From Dictyostelium discoideum (lineage: Eukaryota): a DNA stretch of 64,000 bases. Below, one piece after another: positions 1 through 4,602 of this stretch. Every line of letters begins with the position of its first letter. The stretch's first letter is position 1. Location: positions 1,632,001-1,696,000 of the forward strand of contig CM000151.3 in NCBI GenBank assembly GCA_000004695.1, written 5' to 3'. A model generated the notes under the pieces. That model was not told the DNA's origin, did no database searches, and was given only the letters and a program-made list of their open reading frames with translations. Made by a program: the position numbers and the translations under genes.

Positions 1-2
1 TC

Positions 3-206
3 GAGCACTCTACCACCGAAGTTAGATCAACACATGAAGCTGCAACAACTTCCAATAATGGTGGAATCACAACTCAATCAAACAAAAACAAAACGGGTAA
101 AAAAAGAGCTAATCAATTACAATCTGATGCTGATTTTACCAAAAGATTTTCAAACGAAACTTCATCTGTTAGTAACAAAAGAGAAAGTAGAAGAGTCAAT
201 AATTAA
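3..206 (+). CDS. Partial CDS, C-terminal fragment of a gene that starts upstream of the window; S/T/N-rich low-complexity tail
   Basis: An open frame runs from the window edge to a TAA at 204-206. Frame 3 reads ...TTEVRSTHEAATTSNNGGITTQSNKNKTGKKRANQLQSDADFTKRFSNETSSVSNKRESRRVNN*. GC content is higher than the AT-rich sequence immediately downstream, which looks like a 3' UTR. Frame 1 is also open, so the frame choice is uncertain. Confidence 0.3.
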   Translation, partial: EHSTTEVRSTHEAATTSNNGGITTQSNKNKTGKKRANQLQSDADFTKRFSNETSSVSNKRESRRVNN

Positions 207-569
207 AATAAAAAATTAAAAAAAAAAAATTATTTTAATTTTTTTTTTTTTTTTTTTTTTTTATTTTTAATTTTTTTTTTTATTTTTAATTTTTTTTTAT
301 TTTTAATTTTTTTTTTTGTGAGCCGTAGACATAAATGAATAATAAAAAAATATATATCAACTAAAAAAAAAAGAAATGAAAATAAATTATAAAATTAATA
401 ATAAAAACAAAAAGATAAAAATAAATAAAAGATATAAATAAAATAATATGAAAATTTTTTTTTTTTTTTTTTTTATTATTATAATTATTATAATAAAAAT
501 AATAATAATAAAATTTTGTTTATTTTTGAGATGATTATTAATTAAATGACTTTGACTTTTTTTTTTTTT

Positions 570-725
570 CTATGCCAAAATTACCATATTAATTTTGGCA
601 GCTATGTACATGCTGAAATTAATATGGCTGCTGAAATTAATACGGTAATTTTGGCAGACATAAGTCCCATGCCAAAATTAATATGGCTGCTGAAATTAAT
701 ATGGTAATTTTGGCATGGGACACAT
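570..725. repeat. Cluster of inverted and direct repeats (~45-bp unit ATGGCTGCTGAAATTAATA[C/T]GGTAATTTTGGCA x2, plus hairpin arms CCCATGCCAAAATTA / TAATTTTGGCATGGG and CCAAAATTACCATATTAATTTTGG)
   Basis: Read directly from the sequence. The 9-19 bp perfect inverted arms and two direct copies are not low-complexity AT sequence. The cluster is intergenic, upstream of the nucleoporin-like gene. Confidence 0.5.
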
Positions 726-859
726 AGTATAAGATTAATTTTAATACATCTGAAACTATGATTGATAATGGTCCTCAATCTGGTGAGAATTCATTGGATA
801 GAGATTCTTTAAATATTGGTTCTCAATTTACTTGTGATGATGTTAGCCCAAATTTGTAA

Positions 860-901
<42 letters not shown>

Positions 902-1396
902 AAATATTAATTTTAATATTATTCATTTATAATTATTATTTATTTATAGATTAAATATAGTTTGCTATTATGACCAACTAAAAATTTGTAGAACTAAATT
1001 TGCATTGTTTTTAACAGTTCTTGTAGTTATAGTAATAGTTATTATTTTATGTTTTAAATTACCGATTATTAGAAATTTTCTTAGCTAATATTTTGTTGTG
1101 GTTGTTCTTGCTTTAAAAATAAAAAGAAGAAATCACCATCAAGAAAAATAAATCTCAAAAAATAATAACATTAACAAAAAAAAAAAAAAAGAAAAAAAAA
1201 AAAATAAAAAAAAAAAAAAAAAATAACAATTATAATAATAACAATAAAAAATATTCTATTTTTGGAATAACTGATTGGTGTTATTTTTATAATTGTGGTT
1301 ATTCCCCCATTTTTTTTTTTTTTTGATTTGAAATATTTTGATGATTTTCAAAACATAGGGAATTTGTAAATTTGGTTCAGTGGGGTGTAGGTTAAA

Positions 1397-1428
<32 letters not shown>

Positions 1429-1572
1429 TTTTTATTTTTTATTATTACTTTTTTTTTTTATTGTATTATTATTTTTTAATTTATATATTGTTATATAGAT
1501 AATTTATATTACCTTTTTTTTTATTGTATTATTATTTTTTTAATTTTATTTTTTTCATTATCCATTAAAAAA

Positions 1573-4500
1573 ATGCTCCCCATAAGAAATATTACAATCA
1601 ATCATTCTAGTAACCAAATATTTATAACAAGGTAAGAGCCATTACTATTGAAAAAAAAAAAAAAATTTATTTAAACAGTTTTTAAATTTTTTTTATTTAT
1701 TTTTATTTTTAGATGTATTTGTATTGGTAATGAAATTGAAAAAAAAAAAAGTATTTTTGGAAATGAAATTGAAAAACATTGTTTATTTCCAATACCAGAA
1801 ACAATAAATAGTGATGAAATAATTACTGTTGAGGATAGTGTTGAAAATGGTTCAACTTTATTTCATTTGAAAAAACCAGAATTTCCAAGAGATTTAGAAC
1901 TTTACAAAAACCAAAAATTTATTTTTCAAACCTTAAACTATGGTCAAATTATTGGCACATTTATTGAAATTGATAATAGAAATAAATTAGAAAACAAATT
2001 TTTAGTATTGGATGTTGAAGAAGTCAATAACATTTGTAATGTAAAACCATTTTCAAAAGGAATAATATTATTAAATGAAAATGAAATATCATCATTTATT
2101 TTATTTGACCCAAAATCTAATATTAGTGGACCAGAAACTTATAAATCAAATGCAAAATTGGTAATCAATAATACCACCATATCAAGAGAGATTTTCGTTA
2201 CCCATTGTTCCAAAGTTAATGAAGAGTCTCTTGGATATTATCATCATTTAATTAGAGGTATTGAATTTAATGACCTATTTACTGAACCAAATTTAAAGCC
2301 AAACATTCCAATTAAAGTTTTAACTGAATTTGTTTGGAAACCAATGTTTAATATTGGTGACATTAATAATAACACACAAGAGTCAAAAGTTTCTTTAACA
2401 ATTATAACAAATGATGAAAAGTCTATTTATTCAGTTGAAAATTTTAAATGTTTAAAAAACTATGAGACAAAGATAATAATCAATTCATTTGAAACAACAT
2501 ATAATAGAGCAGTTTTAATTCATCCAATGGGTCCAAATCAAATTTCAATATATTTCAAAAACACTTCAAAATTATTATTTACAAAATCCACAATTCAATT
2601 GGTAAATAGTTATGAAAACCATATGATTGATTTGGTTGATGGTGAAGAAATATTTCTTCAACAAATTGATTATTTTAATTGTGAAACCCAATCATTGGAA
2701 TTATTGAATTCTGTTAGACCAAACTCCACGTGTGTTATGATTTTAAAAGTTCCTAATGAAAAAATTAAAATCTACCAAGAAATTTCTCACCAACCACTAT
2801 TTCCAGCAAGATCAAAGAGAACAAAAATTCAAAGAATAAAAATTTCAAAGGACATTATTTTTATAGATTTTGAATTTAAAAATAAAATTAAGTACCAAAT
2901 TGTCAATTCCTCTCAATTTAAAACCAAAATGCTTATTCATTGCCCAAATAAAGAATTTAATATTAAAGGAATTTCTTGTAAGGAAATCAACAATGATGTT
3001 GATAGAAATTTATATCTTTTGGATTCAGATGCACTTTCAATAAAAGATTTAACATTATATTCTGTAAAGAACGAACAAGTATTTTCAGGTTCAAGTTTTT
3101 CAAAAGTTATTTCAAAATTCTTAGAAAAAAATGATTTTAAAAATACCATCTTAGATTCAGGAAAATTTGAAATTTTTAATTTTACAAATATGGATAAAAA
3201 ATTTCAAAAAGACCTCTCCAAATTATTAGAAAAAGTGTATTTTGAAAAAAGTGATTCTAGTTATTTTGAAAAACAGTTCTCAAAAATGTCACTAAAAGAA
3301 TCATTATTTGATCCTCTCTTATGGAGGGAGCATTCCCTTTATAGATTTTCAAACCAGAACAAGTTTTTTTTTGATTCTGATGCAAACTCTTTTTTTAAAT
3401 CATTAAGTTTTGATACAGTTTCTAATAACAATACCATTTCTTCAACTGGACCTTACAGCCCCATACCAATTTCTTCCTTCCCATTTCAAAAAAATGCAGA
3501 ATCTTTGGATCCTCCACCAATTCCTATCGAAGATATCTCCAATAGAAAAGATAAAAGTGGTGGCACATCTCCTATACCAAAACCAGTTGGAAAAGAAACC
3601 TCAAATACAAATAAATCATCTCAGGAAAATAATAAAAGAAGCTCTGACAAGAAAGTTACCTTTTGTACAAGTGAACCATCATTAGGTAACAAATCTCTAT
3701 TTGGAAGTTCATCCAATCAACAAACTCCTGTAAAAATAGAGCCATCTTTGGAGACCAAATCTCTTTTTGGAAAACATACAACTCCAAGTACAACTGAATC
3801 ATCTGTGTGTACCAAATCCGCTTTTGGAAGTTCACCCCCATCATTATTTGGTCAATCATCTCCCAACAAAACAACTTCAACCACTGAATCTGGCTTGGGT
3901 GAGGGAGAATCAATATCAACAACAACAACAAAAACTAGTGCATTTGGAAGCTCCTCAACTCCTTCATTTGGTGGTACATCTGCATTTGGTGGCCCTCAAA
4001 CTACAGGTGCATTTGGTAGCACTACAACAACTAGTATGTTTGGAAGATCCCCAACCACTTTATATGGTAGTTCTCCAACTACAACGACTAGTATGTTTGG
4101 AAGTAATTCAAACACTTTATATGGTAGTTCTCCAACTACAACAACTAGTATGTTTGGAAGATCCCCAACCACTTTATATGGTAGTTCTCCAACTCCAACG
4201 ACTAGTATATTTGGAAGCTCCTCAACAACTTTATATGGTAGTTCTCCAACTACAACAACTAGTATATTTGGAAGCACTTCAACCCCTTTATTTGGCAGTG
4301 CTTCAACTACAAAAACTAGTTTATTTGGAAGCTCCTCAATATTTGATGCAAAAAATCTCAACAAGACAACTCCAAAAGAAGAAATAAAGAAAGAATCTGA
4401 GGATATAAATGAAAATTCTTCTGAATTACCAGAATTAGTTCAAGATGAAGATTACGATATAGACCAAGTTGAAGATTTAGATGAAGATCAAGTTGAAGAT

Positions 4501-4602
4501 TTAGATGAAGATTACGATGAAGATCAAGTTGAAGATTACGATGAAGATCAAGTTGAAGATTTAGATGAAGATCAAGTTGAAAATTCAAAAGATTCAGTTT
4601 AA
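1573..4602 (+). CDS. FG-repeat nucleoporin-like protein (about 470-aa N-terminal domain, about 20 FG repeats of SAFG/SMFG/SIFG/SLFG type, acidic DEDQVEDLDED repeat tail). Proposed model: join(1573..1631,1713..4602)
   Basis: ORF 1867..4602 stays open upstream to 1714. Candidate exon 1 is ATG 1573-1631 with donor GTAAGA at 1632 and acceptor TTTTAG ending at 1712, and phase is conserved. The FG repeats sit in a 60-bp tandem array (4020-4300) encoding SSPTTTTSMFGRSPTTLYGS. Exon 1 is tentative; an alternative start is the Met at 1867. Confidence 0.6.

Follow-up and report, generated by a model that had tools for sequence, protein, structure and literature searches.

Foldback elements have long inverted repeats composed of subrepeats, and some plant microRNA hairpins derive from MITEs or transposon ends, whose inverted repeats, once transcribed, fold into substrates for Dicer. 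Another hairpin family to which the DNA described herein can be compared is Rfam RF03716 (mir-7131), which we take to be the group entered in miRBase as ddi-mir-7131a-d (Avesson et al. 2012). The element most directly concerned is thug-S, described as a Dictyostelium discoideum DNA transposon (Glockner et al. 2001, Genome Res 11:585, as cited by later papers). The microRNA miRNA_can_D3 has been placed in this transposon and hence is multicopy; its six listed loci are distributed over chromosomes 2, 3, and 5 (Meier et al. 2016, PMC4894637, Table S4). Its mature sequences are D3-5p, UAUGGCUGCUGAAAUUAAUGUGG, and D3-3p, AUUAAUUUCGGCAGCCAUAUU (Meier et al. 2016, PMC4894637, Table 2), and it falls in rbdB- cells (Meier 2016, PMC4894637). 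DrnB is needed for the maturation of Dictyostelium microRNAs in general (Liao 2018), and a run of T nucleotides followed by a G forms a motif at pri-miRNA start sites (Liao et al. 2018). Structural criteria for microRNAs of this organism, as quoted by the same authors, are a folding energy below -0.2 kcal/mol/nt and a duplex that is at least 60% paired. Their criteria for small-RNA reads are a minimum of 10 per arm, a shared 5' end, a 3' overhang of 2 nt, and disappearance in drnB- cells.

We have analyzed an unusual cluster of repeats within a 64,000-nucleotide stretch of D. discoideum DNA (hereafter called the window). We conclude, with a probability of about 0.93, that positions 573-722 form the right end of a thug-S DNA transposon on chromosome 2, complete and non-autonomous, that inserted, with duplication of the sequence CATAGT, into a coding exon of a HAP2-GCS1 family gene. 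The array is the end of a catalogued mobile-element family and is of an already known kind.

An Array of Eight Short Motifs

Eight copies of an 11-mer with the consensus TGCYRAAATTA are arranged in alternating orientation, evenly spaced at 17 to 24 bp, within positions 573-722 (Table 1). The remainder of the 64 kb contains none. In the whole 64 kb, 0.66 +/- 0.82 copies would be expected by chance, and none of 100 shuffled sequences reached eight. This agrees with the remark in an initial annotation of this DNA that nothing similar occurs elsewhere in the window. The array region is a GC-richer island, and the window DNA around it is AT-rich and includes poly-N and poly-Q open reading frames (ORFs).

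The same annotation had noticed several repeat structures, all of which can be located exactly. Its direct repeat of roughly 45 bp corresponds to 609-656 and 668-715 (48 nt, 94% identity, period 59 bp), and its perfect inverted repeat of 15-19 bp is a 17-bp pair, 664-680 with 705-721, that contains CCCATGCCAAAATTA/TAATTTTGGCATGGG. The upstream hairpin around CCATAT is a small palindrome at 573-600, in which this hexamer separates TGCCAAAATTA (573-583) from TAATTTTGGCA (590-600). The direct repeat, the inverted repeat, and the small palindrome all arise because the region is built from the eight TGCYRAAATTA copies. A longer inverted repeat, termed I7, joins 572-605 with 683-716 (34 nt, 91% complementary). 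A scan of bacterial and archaeal genomes gave no match, and a metagenome scan with a 19-mer returned 33 loci, all of which were chance matches of 19-25 nt whose similarity did not extend further.

Table 1. Positions of features in the window (numbering as in the 64,000-nucleotide stretch; L034 to L042 are loci introduced in the text)
Feature	Position	Strand	Basis
Portion of the thug-S copy lying in the window	1-722	+	Break in sibling alignment
C-terminal part of the internal ORF, with stop codon (133-aa ORF, L034 8250-8651)	1-206	+	ORF listing
Conserved subterminal segment, AAATTTTGTTTAT.TTTGAGATGATTATTAATTAAATGACTTTGAC followed by T13 (557-569)	517-569	+	Near-identical in three copies
Hairpin A, 84 nt, ~37 bp, -44.2 kcal/mol (+) / -36.2 kcal/mol (-)	573-656	+	Folding, terminus alignment
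11-mer copy 1, TGCCAAAATTA	573-583	+	Motif scan
11-mer copy 2, TGCCAAAATTA	590-600	-	Motif scan
11-mer copy 3, TGCTGAAATTA	611-621	+	Motif scan
11-mer copy 4, TGCTGAAATTA	629-639	+	Motif scan
11-mer copy 5, TGCCAAAATTA	646-656	-	Motif scan
Hairpin B (terminal), 17-bp perfect stem GTCCCATGCCAAAATTA / TAATTTTGGCATGGGAC	664-721	+	Folding, copy comparison
11-mer copy 6, TGCCAAAATTA	670-680	+	Motif scan
11-mer copy 7, TGCTGAAATTA	688-698	+	Motif scan
11-mer copy 8, TGCCAAAATTA	705-715	-	Motif scan
Right terminal inverted repeat, TAATTTTGGCATGGGACA	705-722	+	Same termini in L034, L039, L040, L041, L042
Target-site duplication CATAGT, right copy (left copy L034 7345-7350, outside the window)	723-728	.	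Empty site in siblings
Flanking host DNA, decayed 3' HAP2-GCS1 remnant	729-1087	+	Sibling read-through, Pfam PF10699
Remnant, exon piece	729-855	+	Sibling comparison
Remnant, intron	856-949	+	Sibling comparison
Remnant, transmembrane-helix exon	950-1087	+	Sibling comparison

The Array Ends at the Boundary of an Insertion

The same locus was taken from a second D. discoideum assembly (GCA_054883475.1; locus L034) by means of the downstream protein, and window positions equal L034 positions minus 8445. The hairpin region is identical in the two sequences. Over 14.6 kb there are 2 mismatches and 10 gap openings, and from these few differences we take the window to represent a different, nearly identical D. 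discoideum strain or assembly. A T/A substitution occurs at window position 525, inside the conserved subterminal segment (TTTATTTTTGAG vs. TTTATATTTGAG).

The orthologous locus was also taken from four sibling Dictyostelium lineages (L035-L038), in which the downstream orthologue is ~80% identical. The motif cluster is absent at this locus in all four. The sibling and D. discoideum sequences align collinearly as far as L034 7350 and then again from 9168 onward, with a 6-bp overlap between the junctions. Given this overlap and the empty site in the siblings, D. discoideum therefore carries an insertion of 1,817 bp (L034 7351-9167, equivalent to window -1094 to 722). Its target-site duplication is a perfect 6 bp, CATAGT, a sequence that occurs once at the empty site of the siblings. 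The window begins inside the element, two thirds of which lie to the left of the window start, and the array constitutes the last 150 bp of the insertion. The initial annotation had called this DNA intergenic, which is correct nominally, but it actually lies inside a transposon that sits in a disrupted gene.

Copies of the Element Share Termini, Duplications, and an Internal ORF

Full copies of the element, in addition to the one at L034 7351-9167, were found at L039 3061-5040 and L040 3981-5544. A sibling lineage carries a family copy (L041) and a more divergent subfamily (L042). All copies have the termini TGTCCCATGCCAAAATTA...TAATTTTGGCATGGGACA at their ends, forming a terminal inverted repeat of 18 bp. 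On the left, the sequence is TG(T)CCCATGCCAAAATTA, and there the copy in the window has lost one T, giving TGCCC instead of TGTCCC. Perfect 6-bp target-site duplications flank four independent copies: CATAGT at the window copy, ATTAAC and CATATT at L039 and L040, and TTTGGT at L042. These multiple copies, inverted termini, and duplications bear out the mobile-element origin that had been raised in the initial annotation, which named thug among the repeat libraries to compare, and they exclude a chance cluster of palindromes in single-copy DNA that has neither inverted repeat nor duplication.

The right-end 230 bp, including all of 570-722, are near-identical in the three D. discoideum copies and closely similar in the sibling copy; window positions 1-572 are likewise conserved in other copies. 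A second motif array occupies the left end (L034 7351-7535), and the two ends form a long inverted repeat of ~230 bp with ~70% identity. The terminal hairpin unit of 57-58 bp has the same orientation at both ends, and it is the ~230 bp inside it that are inverted. The subterminal segment at 517-569 belongs to this long inverted repeat and has its reverse complement at the left ends.

The three D. discoideum copies are 1,564, 1,817, and 1,980 bp long and differ mainly in their AT-rich interior, which in the window copy includes a long (ATT)n microsatellite (L034 7915-8060). Paralogues of the 133-aa internal ORF include DDB_G0290953 (chromosome 5), DDB_G0271172 (chromosome 2), DDB_G0281529 (chromosome 3), and ACTFIT_008970, among others, with further examples in newer assemblies. 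A Pfam search found no domain in this ORF or its paralogues.

Some sibling copies have additional peculiarities. The thug-like subfamily at L042 5420-7156 is ~70-78% identical, has unchanged 18-bp termini, and is flanked by its own TTTGGT duplication. It has one terminal-hairpin arm per end, such that its ends are plain inverted repeats, and its hairpin A arms carry compensatory substitutions. At L041 3954-4868, a second thug-type right-end array has a terminal hairpin interrupted by an insert of ~0.77 kb that begins CACAGCAATGAAAAT and ends TTTTGATTGCTGTG. This insert may be another small inverted-repeat element nested in the thug end.

Relationship to thug-S and to Published MicroRNA Precursors

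The name thug-S rests on the attribution by Meier et al. together with exact microRNA matches, and the choice of thug-S over thug-T depends on the microRNA attribution. The left array of the window copy contains, on its minus strand, exact copies of D3-5p (L034 7427-7449) and D3-3p (L034 7492-7512), 63 nt apart. Both spacing and strand agree with the Meier Table S4 locus chr2:1630981-1631066, and the window copy probably is this locus, given the same chromosome, the same strand, and a similar coordinate (~1.653 Mb in GCA_054883475.1). The chromosomes that carry the internal-ORF paralogues (2, 3, and 5) also coincide with those of the D3 loci. In addition, the left-end hairpin of the window copy (L034 7367-7453) scores 93.8 bits against RF03716, for which the gathering score is 74. 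In AX4, the gene models for the internal ORF begin within the left terminal hairpin, with MAAEINMVILAWDLY, which explains the phrase “intron of thug-S” used by Meier et al.

The right end carries related sequences. D3-5p is matched at window positions 682-704 with 1 mismatch and at 623-645 with 2, where the chance expectation is 0. The former lies in the loop of hairpin B. The latter, TATGGCTGCTGAAATTAATACGG, is the 3' arm of hairpin A and shares positions 1-19 with D3-5p; the 5' arm of this hairpin differs from D3-3p by 4 mismatches. Judged from these alignments, hairpin A is a shortened right-end paralogue of the D3 precursor, with a 28-nt apical deletion. C-to-U changes in hairpin A keep the pairing as G-U on the plus strand, and the sequences AUUAAUUUUGGCAGCUAUGU and UAUGGCUGCUGAAAUUAAUACGG distinguish the right end from the left. 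Relative to the inverted repeat, the loop of the terminal hairpin faces one way at the left end and the other way at the right end, and because of this difference the mir-7131 hairpin can form only at the left end.

The initial annotation had also raised the possibility of a small structured RNA. This proposal holds for the family, whose terminal hairpins are published microRNA precursors, but region 570-725 itself does not pass the Rfam mir-7131 model: 646-680 reaches 20.2-21.1 bits and 680-754 reaches 15.8 bits, well below the gathering score. The 84-nt mir-7131 consensus used in our comparisons was rebuilt from partial Rfam alignments. Full-text searches, together with supplementary data from Liao 2018, Edelbroek 2024, and Meier 2016, revealed no published small RNA equal to the right-end variants. 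Even so, comparison of the sequences makes a small-RNA reading for the right end plausible. Other Rfam models that align to the region, including MIR5512 (51 bits), MIR4208 (44 bits), and mir-3913, were rejected as structural look-alikes; these are generic, long AU-rich microRNA hairpins, and all the hits fall below threshold (gathering scores of 139-140 bits for the plant models).

Folding of the Right Terminus

The region folds strongly. Positions 560-735 of the plus strand fold at -73.1 kcal/mol, compared to -35.1 +/- 4.1 kcal/mol for shuffled sequences (z = -9.2), and the minus strand folds at -63.5 kcal/mol. The weaker folding of the minus strand is explained by several G-U pairs on the plus strand, which is also the strand that reads outward from the right end. 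The plus strand forms two hairpins, A and B, the second of which has a folding energy of -24.1 kcal/mol. With ~37 bp over 84 nt and -0.53 kcal/mol/nt, hairpin A falls within the energy and pairing limits quoted by Liao et al. 2018.

Pairing conservation was assessed using an alignment of nine termini that combines right ends with reverse-complemented left ends. Hairpin A is paired in 96.6% of cells across the 9 termini. The whole structure, comprising three helices, is 95.4% paired, compared to 33-49% when the 3' partners are slid. Within the divergent L042 element, three pairs are changed on both sides, and this occurs only in two arms that pair with each other. When the alignment was shuffled, the number of pairs changed on both sides was reached by 351 of 500 controls, which is unremarkable, but the covariation score was reached by 6 of 500 and the paired fraction by 4 of 500. 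The conserved pairing therein offers limited evidence that base pairing itself has been maintained, as the compensatory changes come from one divergent element and probably reflect one evolutionary event.

A Split HAP2-GCS1 Gene and Its Downstream Neighbor

The insertion interrupts a coding exon of a gene from the HAP2-GCS1 family. To the left of the window (L034 6385-7368), the 5' part of this gene matches Pfam PF10699 with E = 4e-78. Siblings read through the site with an uninterrupted frame, as ...YNEVAQVIHS|IRINFNTSETMIDNGPQSGENSLD... or ...YNEVAQVIHS|IRINFNTSETMIDNGPQ..., where the bar marks the site. Thus, the gene is split in D. discoideum and intact in the four sibling lineages. In D. 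discoideum, the 3' remnant shows two 1-nt deletions, and its acidic C-terminal tail is gone. Two other genes of this kind, hgrA and hgrB, are known (Okamoto et al. 2016); by gene identifier, the split gene is neither hgrA (DDB_G0276069) nor hgrB (DDB_G0281923). A HAP2-GCS1 gene that is split here and intact in close relatives may be of interest to researchers who study Dictyostelium mating.

The disruption also bears on the annotation of the neighboring gene. The “small ORF” that begins at ATG 758 starts at an internal Met of the HAP2-like gene. A protein search with this ORF yielded no homologues, because the ORF is a piece from inside the split exon and not a gene. The transmembrane helix at ~1000-1087 likewise belongs to the severed 3' part of the HAP2-like gene. 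The window encodes exactly KAM9951823.1 (982 aa; window 1573-4602), an FG-repeat, nucleoporin-like protein whose cluster partner is XP_645271.1 (DDB_G0272294). The AX4 model DDB_G0272294 / XP_645271.1 (1,078 aa) appears to be a chimera produced by the insertion, with a HAP2 remnant fused to the FG-repeat gene; spurious exons and the HAP2-like remnant account for its first ~96 residues (window 758-1572). Within the FG-repeat part, window 4021-4339 comprises tandem repeats with a period of 57 bp, 87-89% identical, that encode ...TTTSMFG.SPTTLYGSSP...

Alternative Explanations for the Array

It is improbable that the array is an independent, host-domesticated microRNA gene, that is, a dedicated pri-miRNA upstream of DDB_G0272294 retained to regulate host genes. 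Such a gene would account for the favorable energy and pairing of hairpin A (-0.53 kcal/mol/nt, more than 60% paired), for the T-run that precedes it as at published pri-miRNA start sites, and for the 3' arm that reproduces positions 1-19 of miRNA_can_D3-5p. However, the sequence is the terminus of a multicopy element, near-identical in copies at unrelated sites, and the array lies exactly at an insertion boundary, adjoining the target-site duplication. Moreover, the region failed the mir-7131 model, and our literature search found no published mature sequence or reads that match it. Even less probable is that the 11-mers are transcription-factor sites forming a cis-regulatory array for the downstream gene, which in the AX4 annotation begins at ATG 758. 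Eight evenly spaced motifs in a GC-richer island of AT-rich DNA, 40-185 bp upstream of an annotated start codon, invite this idea, but that ATG lies in the interior of the split HAP2-like exon and is not a real gene start, and a newer annotation starts the gene at 1573. The array is entirely absent from the sibling locus and recurs at unrelated insertion sites.

The initial annotation had named a MITE or foldback-element remnant as a possibility. A solitary element of ~150 bp, with 34-bp inverted ends (572-605 with 683-716) and no larger element around it, is the least probable of the explanations considered, although the I7 repeat is 91% complementary over its 34 nt and plant MIR models of a MITE-like kind align in cmscan to 565-725 as a single long hairpin, at scores far below threshold. 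No duplication flanks 572-716; the real boundaries lie 1,817 bp apart, have a perfect 6-bp duplication, and enclose an ORF, and the conservation of window 1-572 in other copies extends well beyond the proposed left end. Rather than a remnant, the array is an intact right end, and the 1.8-kb element to which it belongs is complete and contains an ORF.

Possible Functions of the thug-S End

Most likely, the array is a transposase-recognition end and, when transcribed, also becomes a secondary source of small RNAs that depend on Dicer (DrnB). At the DNA level, the array and the 18-mer would serve as a cis-acting end bound by a transposase supplied in trans, and binding would be followed by cut-and-paste integration with a staggered 6-bp cut. 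Supply in trans is proposed because the internal ORF is too small and lacks a recognizable domain. We know of no transposase for the thug-S family.

At the RNA level, a transcript probably starts at the subterminal TATA-like and oligo-T segment (517-569) and reads outward on the plus strand. This segment may act as an outward-facing promoter, given its TATA-like sequence and an oligo-T run that resembles the start motif of Liao et al. 2018. Segments of this type point outward at both ends of the element, and at the left end the published D3 reads come from the strand that reads outward. Because the 11-mers alternate in orientation, any transcript passing through the array would fold into long hairpins. 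A transcript through 573-721 could then be a substrate for the microprocessor (DrnB/RbdB), giving small RNAs with the D3-5p seed. Hairpin A in particular likely gives related small RNAs with this seed, as the homologous left-end hairpins are published mir-7131 / miRNA_can_D3 precursors.

We offer a bolder proposal only tentatively, and consider it unlikely as a whole. Each thug-S terminus might be a self-contained cassette that joins an outward promoter to a pri-miRNA, with the TATA-like/T13 segment (517-569) driving transcription through hairpins A and B. In that case the right end would be an unannotated paralogue of the D3 precursor that shares its seed (UAUGGCUGCUGAAAUUAAUACGG), and the insertion would have inactivated a third HAP2-GCS1 gamete-fusogen paralogue. 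If the cassette idea is correct, then each new insertion would seed a microRNA source and a read-out transcript into the neighboring gene.

Comparison with Known Systems

The analysis provides a base-resolved view of a thug-S end, with an 18-bp inverted terminus, eight 11-mers, a 6-bp target duplication, and a terminal hairpin whose orientation does not differ between the two ends. An odd structured island is thereby settled as a transposon end, not a new RNA or regulatory element. The window element resembles thug-S in being multicopy in D. discoideum, in having terminal inverted repeats, and in bearing hairpins that encode miRNA_can_D3. Its likeness to mir-7131 is more partial at the right end: window 621-663 and 680-716 are copies of the 5' arm with 1-4 substitutions, and 573-607 is of the 3'-arm type, but the right end lacks the arm-loop-arm hairpin, whereas the element's left end belongs fully to the family. 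Finally, the element is similar to plant MITE-derived microRNAs in that transposon inverted repeats fold into Dicer substrates once transcribed. The two share no sequence homology, however, and in thug-S the hairpins form within each single terminus rather than by end-to-end pairing.
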